A stretch of DNA of 64,000 nt, taken from assembly GCA_963698975.1 (NCBI GenBank), contig CAVOSV010000003.1, positions 591,199 through 655,198 on the forward strand. Direction: 5' to 3'. This document shows positions 2,813 to 54,882 of this stretch, piece after piece (the stretch's first letter is position 1; the number at the start of each line of letters is the position of its first letter). The stretch comes from an uncultured Gemmatimonadales bacterium. GTDB lineage: Bacteria > Gemmatimonadota > Gemmatimonadetes > Gemmatimonadales > GWC2-71-9. Position numbers and translations under genes: made by a program. Under the pieces are notes generated by a model. The model was not told the origin of the DNA. It saw only the letters and a list, made by a program, of their open reading frames with translations, and ran no database searches.

Positions 2813-4071
2813 AGGGCCAGCGAAAGGGAGCCCTGCTTCCCCGCATGCTGGAAGGATCGGTCATCGCGCTGGACTCGATCCAGGCCAACAAGGTGCGGGC
2901 GGCCCTGACAATCCTGGGCGTAGCGATCGGGGTAACGGTCGTGATCGCCATGGCCTCGGCGATAACCGGGATCAACCAGAGCGTTACCAACATTCTCGAG
3001 TCGGCTGGGCCGAAGACGTTCTTTGTGTATCGCTACTTCTCCGGCGGGCTCGACGTTTCCGATGGTTCCGACGAGCTGTCCCCCTGGCGCCGGATGCCCT
3101 GGCTCACGGTGGATGAGGCAGAGCTGATCCGAAATCTGCCCGCCGTGCGGGACGTCAACATCGGCGAGTACACCAATGGGCCGGTGAGCTTCGAGGGGGT
3201 GGAGCTCAAGAGCGTGGCAATTGCGGGGATGAGTCCGAGCTGGAACCAGGTGAACGGCGGCGAGATTCTGGCGGGACGGAACTTTACTCCTATGGAGTAC
3301 GCGGCCGGTGCGCGGGTCGTGATCATCAACGACAAGCTGGCCGAATCACTCTTCCCCCGGCGCGATGCCATTGGGAAGCGGATCAAGATCTTCGGCGAAC
3401 CATTCGAGGTGATCGGGATGCACGCCGAAGCGGCATCGCTCTTCAGCAACGCCGACGAGCCCCGCCTGGCCATCCCGCATACCACCTTCACCAAAGTTAC
3501 GGACTACGAGAAGGGCTGGATGGATATCGCGGTGCTTCCCGCGGAGACCGCAACCATTCAGGAGGCGCAGGATCAGGTGGCGGCCGCCCTCCGGGTTAAG
3601 CGGGGACTCCGCCCGGGCCAGCCGGACAACTTTGCGGTGGTAACGCAAGACCGGGTACTTGACAGCTTCAACAAAATCACCGCGGCGTTCTTCGTAGTGA
3701 TGATCGCCCTTTCCAGCGTCGGACTGATGGTCGGGGGCGTGGGTGTGGTGGCCATCATGATGATCTCGGTTACCGAGCGCACCCGGGAGATCGGGGTCCG
3801 GAAGGCACTGGGCGCTACCCGGCGGGAGATCATGTTCCAGTTCCTGGTCGAGGCAGCAACGCTGACTCTGGTCGGCTGCATCGTGGGGATGGCGCTGGGT
3901 GCACTGATCGCGTGGGCGATACGGTCCTTTACCCCCATCCCCGCCGCGGTACCGCTGCTGTCGGTCGTGGCAGCGGTACTCGCGTCGATTCTCACCGGTG
4001 TGTTATTCGGCCTCTACCCGGCGAGCAAGGCGTCACGGATGGATCCAGTAGAGGCGTTGCGGTACGAATAG
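2809..4071 (+). CDS. ABC transporter permease, MacB/FtsX family (second paralogue)
   Basis: ATGA overlap with the previous gene. Same architecture, with the signature ERTREIGVRKALGATRREI. No cognate ATPase in the window. Confidence 0.85.
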   Translation: MKGQRKGALLPRMLEGSVIALDSIQANKVRAALTILGVAIGVTVVIAMASAITGINQSVTNILESAGPKTFFVYRYFSGGLDVSDGSDELSPWRRMPWLTVDEAELIRNLPAVRDVNIGEYTNGPVSFEGVELKSVAIAGMSPSWNQVNGGEILAGRNFTPMEYAAGARVVIINDKLAESLFPRRDAIGKRIKIFGEPFEVIGMHAEAASLFSNADEPRLAIPHTTFTKVTDYEKGWMDIAVLPAETATIQEAQDQVAAALRVKRGLRPGQPDNFAVVTQDRVLDSFNKITAAFFVVMIALSSVGLMVGGVGVVAIMMISVTERTREIGVRKALGATRREIMFQFLVEAATLTLVGCIVGMALGALIAWAIRSFTPIPAAVPLLSVVAAVLASILTGVLFGLYPASKASRMDPVEALRYE

Positions 4072-5208: not shown

Positions 5209-5925
5209 ATGCCCGTGGACATCCTGGCCCTCGCCGCCCACCGAGACGACGTCGAGCTCACCTGCGCGGGCACTCTATTGAAGGCCGTCGACGCCGGATA
5301 CAAGGTCGGGATCCTGGACCTTACCGCGGGAGAGACCGGGACCCGAGGAAGCGCATCGCTCCGAGCGGAGGAGGCGGAGAGGTCGGCCAGGATCCTGGGC
5401 GTATCTGAGCGGCGGAATGCTGGACTGCCGGATGCACACCTGCAGAACTCGGAGGAAACACGGCAGCTGGTGATCGAGCACATCCGCCACTTTGCGCCGC
5501 GCGTGGTCATTCTCCCCTTCCCCGTGGGACGTCATCCCGATCACCGCATTGCCTCAGAGCTGGGACGCGACGCCTGCTACCTGGCGGGCCTGGAGCGATA
5601 TCCTGCGGCGGGATCTGCGCATCGTCCTCACAAGCTGCTCTATGCTCTCTCGTATCGCGAGGACCCGGTCAAGCCGACCTTCGTGGTGGACATCAGCGCG
5701 CAGTTCGAACGCAAGCTGTCGGCCATCAAGTGCTACGCCAGTCAATTCGATGGCGCCAAGGCGGCCGGAGAGATCTTTCCCACCGGGCAGGACCTGTATT
5801 CGCTGGTTGAGACCCAGAACGCGCACTACGGCTCCCTCATACGGAAGCGCTACGGTGAGCCGTTCTTTACCCATGAAACGATGGAAGTCGATGACGTCCT
5901 GAAGTTGGGCGTTCGGAGCATCTGA
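5209..5925 (+). CDS. bshB1: PIG-L/LmbE family deacetylase, BshB1-like (bacillithiol biosynthesis)
   Basis: N-terminal DILALAAHRDDVELTCAGT, TAGETGTRGS and HPDH motifs typical of BshB1/LmbE. Confidence 0.75.
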   Translation: MPVDILALAAHRDDVELTCAGTLLKAVDAGYKVGILDLTAGETGTRGSASLRAEEAERSARILGVSERRNAGLPDAHLQNSEETRQLVIEHIRHFAPRVVILPFPVGRHPDHRIASELGRDACYLAGLERYPAAGSAHRPHKLLYALSYREDPVKPTFVVDISAQFERKLSAIKCYASQFDGAKAAGEIFPTGQDLYSLVETQNAHYGSLIRKRYGEPFFTHETMEVDDVLKLGVRSI

Positions 5926-7160: not shown

Positions 7161-8212
7161 GCACCCGCGTCCTGGTCGCCATGTCCGGTGGAGTGGACAG
7201 CTCCGTTGCCGCGGCCCGCCTGGTTGAGCAGGGGTACGAGGTGGTGGGCGCTACCATGAAGCTCTTCTGCTACGGCGAAGAGGTCCCCGATCGGCCTTGC
7301 TGCTCGCTGGATTCCATCAACGATGCGCGGGACGTTGCCGCGGCATTGGGTATTGCCCACTACGTCCTCAACCTCGAGGACCGGTTCAATCTGCACGTGA
7401 TTCAGAACTTCGTGAGCGAGTACAGCAGGGGGCGGACACCCATTCCCTGCGTGCGCTGCAACTCCTTCACCAAGTTCCGCGACCTGCTGGCCCACGCCGA
7501 CGCACTGGACTGTGAATACATCGCAACCGGCCACTACGCCATCTCGCAGGATGGCGCGCTCTACCGGGGCGCGGATCCGGCCAAGGACCAGAGCTACTTC
7601 CTCTGGGGAATCGATCAGGCTGTGGTAGCGCGGATGCTGACGCCGGTCGGCGGTCTGAGCAAGTCAGAGACCCGGGCCTACGCCCGTCGGCTGGGGCTCA
7701 CCACGGCCGACAAGCAGGAGTCGGTTGAGATCTGCTTCGTGCCCAATGACGACTACGTCTCAGTGCTGGAACGGCATCTCCCGGCCGACGCCCCGGCGCT
7801 GCGCCCGGGACCTCTAGTTACCACCGGAGGCCAGATCATCGGCGAGCACCAGGGCTACGGCCGGTATACCATCGGCCAGCGGAAGGGGCTCCCCGGCGGC
7901 TCAGACGGTCCCCGCTATGTGGTAGAGATTCGCCCCGAGCGGCGTGAAGTTGTGGTGGGAGCTGCCGCCGACCTGGCCGGCTACAGAGTGACACTGGAGG
8001 AGGTGAACTGGCTGGCAGATCCGCTGGAAACCGGCGACCGCTGTCAGGTGCAACTCCGGTACAGGGCGCGCGCCGCTCAGGCCGTAGTGTTGGAAAAGAA
8101 TTCGGACCAACTTACCCTGACGTTGGAAACACCTGTCCGGGCCATTGCGCCTGGGCAATCGGGCGTACTCTATGAGCATGATCGGGTGCTGGGCGGAGGC
8201 GTGATCTCCTGA
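7157..8212 (+). CDS. mnmA: tRNA 2-thiouridine(34) synthase MnmA
   Basis: PP-loop VAMSGGVDSSVAA, conserved Cys pairs, length typical of the family. Confidence 0.9.
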   Translation: MSTRVLVAMSGGVDSSVAAARLVEQGYEVVGATMKLFCYGEEVPDRPCCSLDSINDARDVAAALGIAHYVLNLEDRFNLHVIQNFVSEYSRGRTPIPCVRCNSFTKFRDLLAHADALDCEYIATGHYAISQDGALYRGADPAKDQSYFLWGIDQAVVARMLTPVGGLSKSETRAYARRLGLTTADKQESVEICFVPNDDYVSVLERHLPADAPALRPGPLVTTGGQIIGEHQGYGRYTIGQRKGLPGGSDGPRYVVEIRPERREVVVGAAADLAGYRVTLEEVNWLADPLETGDRCQVQLRYRARAAQAVVLEKNSDQLTLTLETPVRAIAPGQSGVLYEHDRVLGGGVIS

Positions 8213-8244
8213 GGACGCCCGCGCGTTCCCTCCTGCTTCACTGG

Positions 8245-8631
8245 ATGCTGAATGCCGCGGCCCTCTGGATTGCCGCCGCCGTAGTTCCCGGCCTGAACTT
8301 CACCGGAGGGCCAGGCCGGCTACTTCTGGTAGCCGCGGTGTTCGGCGTCATCAACAGCACGCTCCGTCCCCTGCTCACCATCCTCACCTGCCCCCTGATC
8401 GTCGTTACCCTGGGCCTCTTCACTCTGGTGCTCAACGCGCTGATGCTGCTGGCCACAGGCCGCCTCTCAGAGAGCTGGAACCTCGGATTTACAGTGAGCG
8501 GGTTCTGGCCAGCTTTTTTCGGGGGGCTGGTGGTGGGGCTGGTGAGTATGGTTTTGTCATTGGGGATGGGGCGGAAGGAGCCACGAGTCAGGAGTCACGA
8601 GTCAGGAGTCGACCGGCCAGGCCGCCTCTAA
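8245..8631 (+). CDS. Phage-holin-family / DUF360 (YvlD-like) small membrane protein
   Basis: Four TM helices with an LNA.ALW.AA..VPG.. N-terminus. The family-conserved N-terminal residues (RSLLLHW) lie upstream of this ATG, so the true start is probably the CTG at 8209 (see findings). Confidence 0.7.
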   Translation: MLNAAALWIAAAVVPGLNFTGGPGRLLLVAAVFGVINSTLRPLLTILTCPLIVVTLGLFTLVLNALMLLATGRLSESWNLGFTVSGFWPAFFGGLVVGLVSMVLSLGMGRKEPRVRSHESGVDRPGRL

Positions 8632-17984: not shown

Positions 17985-18090
17985 AAGTGCCTCAGGCACC
18001 CCGAAGCGACACCGGACATCGCTTAGCGCTGCTACCGGCGAGGTCCTGACGCGGTTCGCGCGCCGGCGCCCTTCGGACCTGAGGCATCAG
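17985..18090 (-). ncRNA. ffs: Small (4.5S-type) signal recognition particle RNA
   Basis: Minus-strand hairpin of about 100 nt closed by UGCCUCAGG (18086-18078) and CCUGAGGCA (17996-17988). Its core, GCGUCAGGACC-UCGCC-GGUAGCAGCGCUAAGCGAUG, matches the helix-8 consensus GUCAGGUCC-GGAA-GGAAGCAGC..AAG..GAUG. TATATT lies 6 nt upstream of the 5' arm and a U-tract follows (CUUCUCUUUUU). The position directly upstream of dnaX matches the conserved scr-dnaX-yaaK-recR synteny. Confidence 0.65.
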
Positions 18091-18677: not shown

Positions 18678-19460
18678 TCAGCCCAGAATAGCCCGCTGGC
18701 GGTCGAGCATTTTTTTCAACTCCCAGGTCTCGGCCACCACAGCGCCCAGCAGAAACACAATTGCCGTGTAGTAGACCCAGAGAATGAACAGCACTATTGC
18801 CCCCAGATTGGCATCGCCGCCAAGCCCCTCGAAGGAGGCGAAGTTGGTGAGGTACAGAGCATAGAGCCGCTTGGCCACCTCGAACAGCAGCGCGGTGAAG
18901 GTGGCGGCGAGCAGCGCGGTTTTCCAGGGGAGCCGCCGGACCGACGCATAGCTGTAGGTGACGTAGAACAAGGAAACCGAGAAACTGAAGGCAAGGAGCT
19001 CCGCGAGGTAACGCCCCAACGTGGACACGAAGAACCCGAGCTGGGGCACCGTTTCGGCCCCGCGTGCCTCCAGGATGGCCAGCCCCGTCGTCAGCAACGT
19101 ATTCGCCAAGAACAAAATTACCGTGCCCACAACCATGGCCGCGTCCCGCAGCTTGGCCATGAGAAACAGCGTAATCGCAGCCCGGTGCCGAGTCGGCCGG
19201 AGTGAAACGTCATAAATGTCATTCAGGGCGGTGCGAACACCGGCAAAGAGCCGGGTGCTGAACCAGAGGAAGGTGGGGACAGCGTAAAGCGAAAGCTCTC
19301 CCCGCTTCTCGGTGATGCCCGTCAGCAGCCGCTCGATAATGGCGAAGGGATCGTGGTCCGGAAGGGTCGAATGTGGCGGCAGGAACCGATGGAACAGCTC
19401 CATGGTGTCGACTTCCGGACCAGTCACGGCTTGCGCCAGATGGGTCAGGCCGATCAGCAA
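18678..19460 (-). CDS. YihY/BrkB family inner-membrane protein
   Basis: Multi-TM YihY-like sequence. The conserved N-terminal segment (FLRRTLQAADEDNIPFLASALTFDALLAAVPFILLL) is encoded upstream of this TTG, so the true start is probably the CTG at 19610 (see findings). Confidence 0.75.
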   Translation of the reverse strand: MLIGLTHLAQAVTGPEVDTMELFHRFLPPHSTLPDHDPFAIIERLLTGITEKRGELSLYAVPTFLWFSTRLFAGVRTALNDIYDVSLRPTRHRAAITLFLMAKLRDAAMVVGTVILFLANTLLTTGLAILEARGAETVPQLGFFVSTLGRYLAELLAFSFSVSLFYVTYSYASVRRLPWKTALLAATFTALLFEVAKRLYALYLTNFASFEGLGGDANLGAIVLFILWVYYTAIVFLLGAVVAETWELKKMLDRQRAILG

Positions 19461-19606
19461 AAGCAGGATAAACGGAACGGCGGCCAGCAGCGCGTCGAAG
19501 GTCAGTGCGCTGGCGAGAAATGGAATGTTGTCTTCATCAGCGGCTTGGAGGGTCCGGCGCAGGAAGCCGGCGGGCGAACGATGCCACCCGCCGGGCCTGG
19601 ACCGAC

Positions 19607-20005
19607 TCAGGCGAGCGGCTCCTCGAGATCAGCGGGTGAGCGGCGCCGAGCCCGAGCGTCGGCCAGACGGCGTTCCAGCTCCTCCCGGGGCGACGGCCTC
19701 GAGCTTCGCCCGAACCGATCCGGGCTGTCGTCTTCCTCGAGCTCGTCTTCCTCGTCCTCCAGCATCCCCTGAAAGGACTCCTTGGCACCACCGAACTGTT
19801 GGGTGATCTCGTCCAGCTTCTCCTCTGTCATCGCCCGGAACTTCCACAGCTTCCGCTGCAGATTACGCCGGGTTTCCTCGCCACTGCTCGGCGCGTATAA
19901 CAGGGCCACCCCCGCGCCCAACAGCGCACCCCAGAAGAGCCACTTGGCGGAGGAGTCACCTCCCCGCTCAACGTACACCACCTCGCGGTGCTGCTTGCGA
20001 CGCAT
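19607..20005 (-). CDS. YtxH domain-containing protein
   Basis: LFWGALLGAGVALLYAPSSGEETRRNL is the YtxH signature. Acidic C-terminal tail. Confidence 0.75.
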   Translation of the reverse strand: MRRKQHREVVYVERGGDSSAKWLFWGALLGAGVALLYAPSSGEETRRNLQRKLWKFRAMTEEKLDEITQQFGGAKESFQGMLEDEEDELEEDDSPDRFGRSSRPSPREELERRLADARARRRSPADLEEPLA

Positions 20006-26514: not shown

Positions 26515-27096
26515 TCAGGTTCCGCGGGTACTGCTTCTCACTGCGGCGCGCAGCTCGGCGAAGTCGCTGGAATCCAGGGCATTGAAGTTCAGATTCCGAA
26601 ATTTGACCCGGCCATCTGGCCCCACCACATACACGGTGCGCCGATTATAGCCGTCAGGATCCTTGCTGGCGTACTGCTTCGATACCCGTTGCTCCGGATC
26701 GCTCAGCAGCCGAAACGGGAGGCCCAAGCTGGCTGCGAACCGGTTGTGAGTGGTGACGGAATCCGCGCTGATCCCGACCACCACCACATTGGGCCCGAAC
26801 AAACTGTCGTACTGTTCGGCAAAAGTGCGCAGCTGGGCGGTGCACCCCTTGGTGAAATCCCGGGGATAGAAGGCAACCACCACGGTCTTGCCGCGGTCGC
26901 TGGCGAGCTGGTAGGGCGATTCGACGGGGCCTACCCCGTCCCGGTTGGCCCAGGGCAACGAAAAATCCGGCGCGCGCTGGCCCACATCCGGTCCACTCTG
27001 GAGTACGGCTTTGACCGTTCCAGGATGGTTCTGAGCCGTCGCGGCAGGTACAAGGGCCAGACCGATGAGTGCCAGTGAGAGGCGGGAAACGCGCAT
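26515..27096 (-). CDS. Exported peroxiredoxin (Bcp/AhpC-TSA family)
   Basis: Signal peptide plus the YPRDFTKGCTAQ peroxidatic-Cys motif. Confidence 0.85.
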   Translation of the reverse strand: MRVSRLSLALIGLALVPAATAQNHPGTVKAVLQSGPDVGQRAPDFSLPWANRDGVGPVESPYQLASDRGKTVVVAFYPRDFTKGCTAQLRTFAEQYDSLFGPNVVVVGISADSVTTHNRFAASLGLPFRLLSDPEQRVSKQYASKDPDGYNRRTVYVVGPDGRVKFRNLNFNALDSSDFAELRAAVRSSTRGT

Positions 27097-27117: not shown

Positions 27118-27618
27118 TCAGTCCTGGGTGACCCCGCGCAGAACCTTGTCGAGATCCTGAGTGCCGCCGGTACCGGTATACGCCACCTTTCCCGCCCGAT
27201 CCACCACCACCACATACGAGGTGGTGGGCACCTTGTATGCCCGAATGCTGGTGCCCTGATCGTCGTACAACGTGCGGAACCCAGGCTGGTGCGTGTCCAC
27301 ATACCGGCGAACCCGCTCAGGCGTCTGATTGACGGTGACGTTGACGCCGATGAACTCGACTTTCGAGCCATACGCTGTGTGGGCCGCGCGTACCCGGGGA
27401 AGCAGCTCTTCGCACAGCTCACACCAAGTGGCCCAGAACTCGAGGAGCACGGGCTGCTTTCCGATATACTGACCGAGGTCGACCGGCTTTCCGTCGAGAT
27501 CGTTCACCTTGACCGCCGGCGCCTTGCTTCCGACTGAAATGCCTGATTCCTGAGCAGCAAGCCGGCTGCCCCCCAGCACGAGCAGAGCAACAAACCCGCC
27601 TCTCAGCAGCGTCTTCAT
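27118..27618 (-). CDS. TlpA/ResA-family periplasmic thiol:disulfide oxidoreductase
   Basis: Starts at MKTLLRGGFVALLVLGG (ATG 27618, ATGA overlap with the ccdA stop). Thioredoxin motif WATWCELC. The ORF-track start at 27945 lies inside ccdA. Confidence 0.85.
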   Translation of the reverse strand: MKTLLRGGFVALLVLGGSRLAAQESGISVGSKAPAVKVNDLDGKPVDLGQYIGKQPVLLEFWATWCELCEELLPRVRAAHTAYGSKVEFIGVNVTVNQTPERVRRYVDTHQPGFRTLYDDQGTSIRAYKVPTTSYVVVVDRAGKVAYTGTGGTQDLDKVLRGVTQD

Positions 27619-28220
27619 AGTACAGTCCCCGCTCTTACGAGATAGTATTCCGCCATTCCCACCAGCAATATGCCGCCCACGCGCTTGACAGTCAGGGTCC
27701 AGCGGCCGGCTCGCGGCAACGCGGCCACGACTCCGCTGAATAGTCCTACCGCAACCAGGAGCGCGGTCAGGCCGAGGGAGAATACAAAGAGATAGAGAAA
27801 CCCCAACCAGGCGCTTCCGGTGGTACTGACGAATGTGAGAACCGCCGCGAATGCCGGAGCCCCGCAGGGGGCAGCCACTAGCCCCGATGTTGCACCCAGC
27901 ACGAAGACGCCGGCAACCGAATTGCCGCCGATGCGGCCGGCCCACGCGGCAACTCGACTGGGGACGCCGAAGTTAAAGACGTCCAACATGCCCAGGCCAA
28001 ACACGAGGAGCAGATTGGCCATAATCAGGAGTGCCCAGGGACTCGAGCTGACGCTCCCAAACAGAGTGCCGGAGAGACCAGCCAGCAGGCCGAGCACCGA
28101 GTACACCAGTGCCAAGCCCAGGACGTATACCAGCGTGAGCGCGAGAGTGCGCCCGCGCGAGCGTCCAGTTGCACCCGCCCCACCCAGGATGCCGGCGGTA
28201 ATGGGAATCATCGGATACAC
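27615..28220 (-). CDS. ccdA: Cytochrome c biogenesis/thiol-reductant transporter CcdA (DsbD family)
   Basis: CVYPMIP and APCGAP motifs. The first essential Cys is the codon immediately upstream of this GTG, so the real start must be further upstream, probably the CTG at 28313 (see findings). Confidence 0.8.
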   Translation of the reverse strand: MYPMIPITAGILGGAGATGRSRGRTLALTLVYVLGLALVYSVLGLLAGLSGTLFGSVSSSPWALLIMANLLLVFGLGMLDVFNFGVPSRVAAWAGRIGGNSVAGVFVLGATSGLVAAPCGAPAFAAVLTFVSTTGSAWLGFLYLFVFSLGLTALLVAVGLFSGVVAALPRAGRWTLTVKRVGGILLVGMAEYYLVRAGTVL

Positions 28221-28309
28221 GCAGGGAGTAAGACTGGTGGCCAGGCCGGCTACGAACAGGGCGAGACTTGCAGCCAGCGGCTGATCGCGGAGCGTTGCCT
28301 CGAGACCGA

Positions 28310-29542
28310 TCAGACCCGCTCCGCGGCTCCGACGCCGTACCGCGAGGAGACATACTCCTCGAGGATCCCCAGAAACTCGGCCACGATGTCGTCCCCACGC
28401 AGCGTCACCAAAAGACGGCCATCCACATATACCGGGGCCTTGGGCTCCTCGAAGGTGCCCGGGAGCGAGATTCCGATATTGGCGTGCTTCGATTCACCGG
28501 GGCCATTCACCACACAGCCCATAACAGCCACCTTCATCTCCTCGACCCCGGGATGCTCGCTCCGCCACACCGGCATCTTGACCCGCAGGTAGTCCTGAAT
28601 GTCCTGTGCCATCTGCTGAAAGAAGGTGCTGGTGGTCCGGCCGCAACCGGGACAGGCGGTGACCTGCGGATTGAAGCTGCGGAGTCCGAGCGATTGCAGA
28701 ATCTGCTGCGCGACGCGAACCTCCTCACTGCGGTCTCCACCGGGCTCGGGCGTCAGCGATACCCGGATGGTGTCGCCGATGCCTTCCTGCAGGAGAATGC
28801 TGAGGCCGGCGGTGCTGGCGATGATGCCCTTGGCGCCGAGTCCGGCCTCAGTCAATCCGAGATGCAGCGGAAAGTCGCATCGGGCCGCGAGCATACGATA
28901 CACGTCGACCAGATCCTGCACCCCGGACACTTTGGCGCTGAGCACAATGCGGTCGTGGCCCAGACCCGTGGCCTCCGCGAGCGCCGCCGATTGGAGGGCA
29001 CTTTCCACCATCGCCTCCAGGACTACGAGCCGGGTGTCCCGTGGGGCCGGCCGGCGCGCGTTGGCGTCCATCATTGCGGTGAGCAGGGTCTGGTCAAGGG
29101 AGCCCCAATTCACCCCGATCCGCACCGGCTTGTCGTATGCCAGCGCAACCTCAACTATGGACCGGAAGTTTTCATCCCGCCGCTTCCCTCCCACGTTTCC
29201 GGGATTGATCCGATACTTGGCCAGAGCCCGGGCGCATTCCGGATACCTGGTGAGGAGCAGATGACCGTTGTAGTGAAAGTCTCCGATGATGGGAACGCTC
29301 ACATCCATCCGCGCCAGCGCGTCCACCACCGCCGGCACCGCCTGGGCCGAAGCCTCATTGTTGACCGTGACCCGAACCAGCTCGCTTCCGGCCTGCGCGA
29401 GCTCCGCAATCTGACCCGCCGTGGCGGCGATATCGGCAGTGTCGGTGTTGGTCATCGACTGGATGACGATCGGATGAGCGGATCCAATCAAGACCCCGCC
29501 GATGTTGGCGGAAATGGTGCTCCGGCGAGTGACGAAGGGCAT
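28310..29542 (-). CDS. ispG: 4-hydroxy-3-methylbut-2-enyl diphosphate synthase IspG
   Basis: [12 protein letters not shown]-terminal motif and the ACPGCGRT Fe-S cysteines. Confidence 0.95.
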
Positions 29543-54153: not shown

Positions 54154-54882
54154 CTAGAGGTTCGACCTGAGAAAGGCCGGCGTGAGGTCCTGCAGCCAGG
54201 CGGCGAGCCGGGTGAATTGTCCTGTCATCAGCAACACACCGACTACCACCAACAGCGCGCCACTGATCCGCATTACCCAGGGAAGCAGCGGCCTGAAACG
54301 CTGAAACCAGCGGAGAAACCACTCGACAGCCAGAGCCGCCACGATGAAGGGTAAGGCCAAGCCCGCCGAATAAACCGCCAGGAGCAAAACGCCCCGGTGT
54401 ACGTCGCCCGCGCTCGCAGCCAGACTGAGAATGCCACCCAGAACCGGGCCGATGCAGGGCGTCCATCCCGCCGCAAACACCATCCCGACCAGCGCTGAGC
54501 CCAGGTATCCCACGGGCTTGTGCTCCAGCTGCAGCCGACGCTCCTGGTATAGCATCGGGCTCCGGATTACACCCAGGCAGATCAGGCCAAATCCAACGAT
54601 GAGCGCGCCACCAATGCGCTGAACCCAGACCTGGTAGTAGTTGAGCGTGCGGCCAAGCGCGGTGGCGGTGGCACCCAGCAGAATAAATACGAGAGAAAAC
54701 CCAGCGACGAACAGTGTGGCGTGGACCAAAGCAACCCGGCGGCGCTGCTCCACCTCGGGCAGCGTCATGCCGGTGAGAAATCCCAGATAGCTGGGCACCA
54801 GGGGAAGCACGCAGGGGGACAGAAAGCTCAGGAGTCCTGCGGCAAAAGCGACAAGAAGCCCCAGGGCAGCAGGCTCGTTCAC
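54154..54882 (-). CDS. ccdA: Cytochrome c biogenesis/thiol-reductant transporter CcdA (second copy)
   Basis: LSFLSPCVLPLVPSYL and GWTPCIGPVLG motifs. GTGA overlap with the Fur-family gene. Confidence 0.9.
   Translation of the reverse strand: MNEPAALGLLVAFAAGLLSFLSPCVLPLVPSYLGFLTGMTLPEVEQRRRVALVHATLFVAGFSLVFILLGATATALGRTLNYYQVWVQRIGGALIVGFGLICLGVIRSPMLYQERRLQLEHKPVGYLGSALVGMVFAAGWTPCIGPVLGGILSLAASAGDVHRGVLLLAVYSAGLALPFIVAALAVEWFLRWFQRFRPLLPWVMRISGALLVVVGVLLMTGQFTRLAAWLQDLTPAFLRSNL

Follow-up and report, generated by a model that had tools for sequence, protein, structure and literature searches.

The ispG-ccdA junction and its conservation

The window, by which we mean the whole 64,000-nucleotide (nt) stretch analyzed here, comes from a soil bacterium of the Gemmatimonadales (contig CAVOSV010000003.1 of GenBank assembly GCA_963698975.1). 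On its minus strand ispG is followed by ccdA, a gene for a thiol-disulfide electron transporter, and our subject is where translation of ccdA begins: from an in-frame stop at 28496 down to a GTG at 28220, the ccdA frame contains no ATG, GTG, or TTG. The features at the junction, given with window coordinates, are as follows.

28310-29542, minus strand: ispG (GcpE), 410 amino acids (aa); Pfam GcpE match with E = 1.4e-114, end point shared by orthologues
27615-28313, minus strand: ccdA, DsbD_TM family thiol-disulfide electron transporter; 232 codons plus stop if read from the CTG, a gene call supported by Pfam, PDB entry 5VKV, and dN/dS
28319-28322, minus strand: Shine-Dalgarno (SD)-like GGAG within the 3' end of ispG, 5 nt before the CTG and 8 nt before the ATC
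28311-28313, minus strand: CTG, candidate initiation codon, in a CTGA overlap with the ispG stop; its geometry is that of the conserved yihY CTGA start described below
28308-28310, minus strand: ATC, alternative candidate initiation codon, in a TGATC overlap with the ispG stop; the codon right after CTG 28313
28221-28223, minus strand: TGC, encoding Cys31, the active-site cysteine of the first transmembrane segment (TM1), directly 5' of GTG 28220

The ispG gene ends GAG CGG GTC TGA, its stop codon occupying 28312-28310, and the ccdA frame, which opens just after a TGA at 28496-28494, is open for 61 codons within ispG. The first canonical codon of that frame, GTG 28220, is the V of TPCVYPMIP. 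An earlier sequence-only reading of this DNA had remarked that the TM1 cysteine codon lies upstream of every canonical ccdA start, and that a start at CTG 28313-28311, overlapping the ispG TGA as CTGA, would give 232 aa; both statements were confirmed from the sequence, and the coordinates assigned to the stop, the CTG, GTG 28220, and the cysteine codon were all correct. The same reading was wrong in taking the CTG to be the only in-frame candidate, because ATC 28310-28308 is an adjacent near-cognate codon, and further near-cognates are found in frame at 28277, 28259, and 28244 (all CTG), 28430 (ATA), and 28493 (ATC). Couplings of the ATGA and GTGA type do occur elsewhere in the window, as had been said; we counted five ATGA and two GTGA stop/start overlaps.

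The CTG-started product matches the Pfam DsbD_TM profile (PF02683) with E = 1.9e-45, residues 17-225 aligning to profile positions 6-215 of 219, and it aligns with Thermus CcdA (PDB 5VKV) over residues 17-220 with E = 3.7e-10. Cys31 (TPCVYP) and Cys150 (APCGAP), which lie in PCxxP motifs of TM1 and TM4, align with the cysteines of 5VKV, and both of these conserved residues are present in the protein only if translation begins upstream of 28223. Of the six transmembrane helices expected for the family, a Kyte-Doolittle scan shows five as clear hydrophobic segments, the C-terminal one remaining under the threshold.

Six assemblies were compared across the junction: the window itself (WIN), a metagenome-assembled genome (MAG) whose product is 97% identical in amino acids (L001), three JGI metagenome contigs (L081-L083), and an ENA contig (L286). 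The junction GGAGCGGGTCTGATC is unchanged across these six independent assemblies, which come from different samples and among which Illumina and Nanopore are both represented; the sequence GGAGCGGGTCTGATCGGTCTCGAG is likewise the same in WIN, L001, L081, L082, L083, and L286, and the GGAG motif is invariant. The earlier concern that a miscalled base might hide a canonical codon is thereby settled: no ATG will come to light on resequencing. Between the window and L001, the nonsynonymous and synonymous divergences are dN = 0.018 and dS = 0.229 for ccdA (dN/dS ~0.08), and dN = 0.013 and dS = 0.261 for ispG. The 150 nt upstream of the CTG contain 29 sites that vary among the six sequences, 24 of them at third positions of ispG codons, and downstream of it there are 109, of which 85 fall at third positions of ccdA codons; the 31 codons that precede the ccdA cysteine contain six variable sites, every one of them at a third position. 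Around the junction itself, from -9 to +17, ten consecutive sites at which a synonymous change could occur are invariant, although in the rest of the gene ~36% of third positions are variable. The six sequences show neither stops nor frameshifts in ccdA. The pattern of variation thus indicates that coding constraint acts on the ispG frame right up to the junction and on the ccdA frame from there on, that the junction itself is conserved at the nucleotide level, and that ccdA, its N-terminal 31 codons included, is a functional gene under purifying selection.

One of the six deserves separate comment. In L286 (ENA contig_131955, 96.8% identical), ispG, pyruvate kinase, and PGI are each divided between two gene calls, and the contig requires 62 alignment gaps relative to the window; split calls and gaps of this kind are typical of long-read indel errors, and its gene models are thus unreliable, though its ccdA junction agrees with the others.

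How the start was lost can be read from the 80 orthologous ispG-ccdA loci that were examined. The sequence-only reading had proposed aligning orthologues to see what codon they carry at the homologous position, and relatives do start ccdA there or nearby with ATG, GTG, or TTG, several of them as NTGA or TGATG overlaps. Of the loci whose ccdA start is normal, the most closely related (L002, L003, and L006) have 6 nt after the ispG TGA and then GTG or ATG, with ~8 extra N-terminal codons, and relative to these loci the clade of the window is without ~25 nt at the junction. It appears, then, that a deletion of ~25 nt in one Gemmatimonadales clade removed the ccdA start and abutted the sequence encoding GLEATLRDQPL onto the ispG stop; the GGAG motif arose by a GAC to GAG change relative to the L002 group. 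More distant relatives couple the two genes as cTGAtg (L016, L026, and L027), gTGAtg (L023), tTGAtc (L020), or gTGAtc (L021), and the positions of the window's CTG and ATC are both used as canonical starts in other relatives. A Gemmatimonas MAG (L036, positions 2995-3010) has the junction TGA CCG ATC with GGAG 9 nt upstream, where the choice is limited to that ATC and an internal CTG; this locus lost its canonical ccdA start independently.

Downstream of ccdA the cluster is completed by two genes.

27118-27618, minus strand: TlpA/ResA-like thioredoxin-fold protein with a WCELC motif and a signal peptide; it starts on an ATG in an ATGA overlap with the ccdA stop
26515-27096, minus strand: AhpC/Prx-like peroxiredoxin, the final gene of the cluster

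The ccdA-tlpA junction served as a control, being ATGA or GTGA in 50 of 74 relatives; the N of this NTGA varies freely (22 ATGA and 28 GTGA). The window protein resembles Thermus thermophilus CcdA (5VKV) and the transmembrane domain of DsbD in its DsbD_TM match, in the PCxxP motifs of TM1 and TM4, and in having a thioredoxin-like partner gene downstream. It differs from them in that its TPCVYPM motif is nearer the DsbD/ScsB type than the SPCVLPL type, and from Thermus CcdA in its ~11 extra N-terminal residues and in the lack of a canonical start codon in its gene. A second DsbD_TM gene is present at 54154-54882 (minus strand); it is the more CcdA-like of the two, with the motif SPCVLPLVP and an ordinary GTG start, and the genome thus carries two thiol-disulfide transporters.

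Other CTGA junctions in the window

The sequence-only reading had also stated that the pattern recurs at 8209 and 19610. At 19610 this was strongly borne out, CTGA being found in 83 of the 85 orthologous loci fetched, with no canonical start to be had in its place; at 8209 the situation in the window is ambiguous, since an ATG at 8245 may work. The features at 19610 are these.

19607-20005, minus strand: YtxH-like gene, its stop TGA (19609-19607) overlapping the yihY CTG
18678-19610, minus strand: yihY, encoding a YihY/BrkB-family membrane protein of 310 aa from CTG 19610-19608
19619-19624, minus strand: SD-like GAGGAG, 8 nt before the yihY CTG and nearly invariant in orthologues

The YtxH-like gene ends GAG GAG CCG CTC GCC TGA, and the yihY junction reads GAGGAGCCGCTCGC-CTGA. 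In the CTG-started YihY, the Pfam BrkB domain sets in at residue 26, and TTG 19460, the first canonical start, is residue 51; initiation there would cost the protein 50 residues, 25 of them in the Pfam domain. Orthologous loci were collected in two overlapping scans (L084-L125 and L206-L285), which covered roughly 80 species in Gemmatimonadales genomes at 53-98% identity. CTGA stands at the same position in 83 of the 85 loci fetched, and no canonical start was found ahead of the conserved domain in the loci with the CTGA junction. The exceptions are L268, which is frameshifted, and L282, whose CTGA stands out of frame, with a GTG start 12 nt further on. The C of the CTG, which doubles as the third base of an upstream Ala codon, is invariant; its replacement by any other base would leave the upstream protein unchanged and would make ATG, GTG, or TTG, and an invariant C therefore suggests selection for weakness. 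Substitutions just upstream of the CTG leave the amino acids of the YtxH-like protein unchanged but alter those of the yihY frame, from which it follows that yihY is not translated from further upstream. The comparison indicates that the lineage of the window has kept a CUGA start in yihY.

The other junction lies on the plus strand, behind mnmA.

8209-8631, plus strand: DUF360/Phage_holin_4_2-family membrane protein; CTG 8209-8211 overlaps the mnmA stop (8210-8212), and ATG 8245 is an alternative start
8195-8199, plus strand: GGAGG, 9 nt before the DUF360 CTG

Loci L126-L144 and L183 were compared here. Three of them (L126, L127, and L144) share the CTG arrangement but have ATC or ATA at the position of the window's ATG 8245, and are thus left with no canonical start. 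In L129-L132 there is a GTG at the codon that is GCG (8221) in the window, and GGCGG replaces GGAGG, whereas in the closest relative (L183) the CTG is out of frame, GGAGG is absent, and the ATG is kept. These differences indicate that the DUF360 gene lost an ancestral GTG start (now GCG 8221) and gained both GGAGG and an in-frame CTGA; ATG 8245 was acquired next, in the window genome and its closest relative, the latter of which later lost the CTG frame and GGAGG. The working start in the window may be either CTG 8209 or ATG 8245. At the 3' tail of the same gene (8575-8612, plus strand) there is a short tandem duplication, cacgagtcaggagt, whose two copies encode a repeated RVRSHESG-like stretch.

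CTGA was rejected as a signal in itself. Two further junctions, at 5922 (plus strand) and 18681 (minus strand), are chance matches with convincing canonical starts downstream: the iscS-like (cysteine-desulfurase-like) gene at the former starts at ATG 5946, and the lipoprotein gene at the latter starts at GTG 18651 behind GGGGAGG. What carries significance is that a canonical start is missing and that the arrangement is conserved, not the tetranucleotide. An SD-like motif precedes all three CTG junctions by 5-9 nt, against 14 of 52 (27%) crude gene starts and 11% of random positions; SD use in Gemmatimonadetes is put at ~22% (PMC10783764). A Pfam scan of ten stop-to-stop open reading frames (ORFs) with long open upstream stretches revealed no further start-less genes, and no other gene in the window has a domain that reaches upstream of its first canonical start. 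An exact-sequence look-up in public records found no CTG, ATC, GTG, or TTG versions of the ccdA and yihY proteins; only the ATG version of the DUF360 protein was present.

Two observations concern other parts of the window. A bacterial small signal recognition particle (SRP) RNA (Rfam RF00169, 46 bits) lies at 17986-18085 on the minus strand, just upstream of dnaX; it overlaps the first ATG (18019) of the mechanical dnaX ORF, so that the real dnaX start is probably further downstream. No tRNA genes were found in the 64-kb window.

Where translation of ccdA may begin

We think it likely that ccdA is a functional gene whose canonical start has been deleted, and which would now be translated from a near-cognate codon sitting on the ispG stop. 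A quite different explanation invokes an assembly or sequencing error, or else a -1 frameshift, be it programmed or due to a GGG/GGGG homopolymer miscall, by which IspG is fused to CcdA. The 61 codons over which the ccdA frame is open within ispG would allow this, a single extra G in a GGG run would join both frames, the ispG frame does contain one heptamer of the formal X XXY YYZ type (C CCG GGC at 28463), and some of the relatives are Nanopore MAGs with evident indels. Nevertheless, the probability of error or frameshifting is very small, as the junction is the same in all six assemblies, the three JGI metagenome contigs among them, sites upstream of the junction vary according to the ispG frame alone, and all relatives keep ispG and ccdA as separate genes with an intervening stop. 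In L082 and L083, moreover, the ccdA frame is closed ~25 codons upstream of the junction, which is downstream of the heptamer position. A programmed -1 frameshift would have to use the only heptamer present, beyond which the ccdA frame meets a stop in L082 and L083, and no ccdA-frame constraint is seen upstream of the junction; CCCGGGC is not known as an efficient slippery site. The upstream near-cognate codons ATA 28430 and ATC 28493 were rejected as starts for the same two reasons, namely the ispG-frame-only variation and the closed frame of L082 and L083. It might alternatively be supposed that ccdA is a decaying pseudogene, redundant with the second CcdA at 54154-54882, for its start codon was lost by deletion and the second DsbD_TM gene is there in the window. 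Against decay stand a dN/dS of 0.08 over a dS of 0.23 since start loss, the absence of stops and frameshifts in the six sequences, and the retained ATGA coupling to the downstream thioredoxin-like gene, and we give the idea hardly any credence. Overall, the switch of frame at the junction together with its conservation serves to exclude a sequencing error, a pseudogene, a far-upstream start inside ispG, and a start at or after Val32.

Initiation might also take place further downstream, at an internal CTG (28277, 28259, or 28244), at GTG 28220, or at ATG 28211, in which case the sequence upstream would be untranslated and the protein shortened or without its cysteine. CTG 28277 would put the cysteine at residue 19, and the Thermus CcdA cysteine aligns at ~residue 20; public gene callers, for their part, give ~198-aa versions. 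Yet variation between 28313 and 28277 is confined to two sites, each a synonymous third position, as are all six that vary before the cysteine codon, and GLEATLRDQPL is conserved at the protein level in relatives with starts further upstream; these two observations disfavor CTG 28277 in particular. There is no SD-like motif ahead of CTG 28277 or GTG 28220, and a start at 28220 would delete TM1 and the catalytic cysteine, whose codons are under purifying selection. An internal start is accordingly improbable, if less so than error or decay. For the two codons that overlap the ispG stop, the choice is closer. We favor CUG 28313, in its CUGA overlap, because the same lineage maintains CUGA starts, but we hold this preference with about as much doubt as conviction. 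AUC 28310-28308, which shares one base with the ispG stop (UGAUC) much as the TGATG couplings of relatives do, is a strong alternative on account of its SD spacing and those relatives, although we consider it somewhat the less probable of the two. Where the window has ATC, the cTGAtg loci L016, L026, and L027 have ATG; the 8-nt spacing from GGAG matches the 8-9 nt at the yihY and DUF360 CTG junctions; L036, with its independent loss, has kept an ATC behind GGAG; and an ATC start has been proven for Deinococcus dnaA (PMC2830850). On the other hand, NTG must be the start in L020 (tTGAtc) and L021 (gTGAtc), making ATC codon 2 there, and the other CTGA starts of the same genome are followed by AGT (yihY, 19610) and AGG (DUF360, 8209), which are not alternative start codons; nor is there any variation in the two codons by which to discriminate CTG from ATC.

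Several points weigh against initiation at the junction, or at its CUG, and should be set beside the evidence for it. Since CTG and ATC are both invariant in all six sequences, they are indistinguishable by variation. The distance from the SD-like motif to the ccdA CTG is 5 nt, compared with 8-9 nt at the yihY and DUF360 CTG junctions, and the 8 nt to the ATC fits better. In Escherichia coli, CUG and AUC initiate at 1-2% of the level of AUG, or at 0.02-3% depending on the construct (bioRxiv 10.1101/063800). Finally, of the window's 28 TGA stops, 14 have a C in front of them, and CTGA is thus common by chance.

If ccdA is indeed started on the ispG stop, the process would probably be SD-assisted initiation or reinitiation on a near-cognate codon by ribosomes that terminate on ispG. 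Ribosomes ending ispG, or 30S subunits recruited there, would be held by the GGAG 5-8 nt upstream, and fMet-tRNA would be placed on the near-cognate codon by the ribosomes or subunits so held. The outcome would be a low, ispG-coupled level of a 231-232-aa CcdA that retains TM1 and the essential cysteine. Which codon serves, methionine as the first residue, and the dependence on ispG translation are all matters that we infer from the comparisons above.

Relation to known start sites and meaning for the Gemmatimonadales

Near-cognate starts and stop/start coupling are both already known, and ccdA adds a case. The AUU start of infC is a weak near-cognate start that has been kept over long evolutionary distances, as has the yihY CTGA. 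The infC start is part of a feedback loop through IF3, whereas no regulator is proposed here for ccdA or yihY. The nearest parallels are in Deinococcus, where CTG (rpsL and Deide_03051) and ATC (dnaA) starts have been verified proteomically (Baudet et al. 2010, PMC2830850). There, too, conserved residues of conserved genes are encoded ahead of any canonical start, relatives keep the CTG or ATC, and automatic annotation truncates the gene or misplaces its start. The Deinococcus starts were verified by N-terminal mass spectrometry, whereas those proposed here for the Gemmatimonadales are deduced by comparison; in addition, the CTG here forms a CTGA with the upstream stop and has an SD-like motif ahead of it within the upstream gene, and the Deinococcus feature is ancient whereas the ccdA loss in the window is recent and clade-specific. 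Termination-reinitiation has been described at 4-nt (ATGA) and 1-nt (TGATG) overlaps between same-strand operon genes, which have the same overlap geometry and an SD motif inside the upstream gene; that motif was important in four of five E. coli pairs (Huber et al. 2019, PMC6728339). The overlaps in that work use ATG, however, and CTGA, GTGA, and TTGA are unmentioned there.

CUGA candidates make up two or three of the ~55 genes in the window. In other bacteria, switches to CUG amount to ~3 per 100,000 AUG starts (PMC5622118), against which two or three CUG-start genes in 64 kb are far above expectation. It is possible, though we advance it only tentatively, that the Gemmatimonadales make regular use of CUG, and actively maintain it, as an initiation or reinitiation codon at CUGA stop/start overlaps. 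If so, either start-codon discrimination in reinitiation would be relaxed across the lineage or a fixed, very low coupling ratio would be under selection, and gene callers that accept only ATG, GTG, and TTG would have mis-started a few per cent of the genes in thousands of Gemmatimonadota MAGs. Public gene calls already give a CcdA of 198 aa, from which TM1 and the catalytic cysteine have been removed, and a YihY of 241-260 aa rather than 310; functional or structural inference from such truncated models would be wrong, probably across many Gemmatimonadales genomes. The three genes may also form a natural series of start-codon loss, new SD motif, and near-cognate start, in which ccdA would be recent, DUF360 intermediate and partly reverted to ATG, and yihY ancient and invariant. 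A series of three such depths could help in studying how near-cognate initiation is tolerated, and how it is tuned, where bacterial genes overlap.

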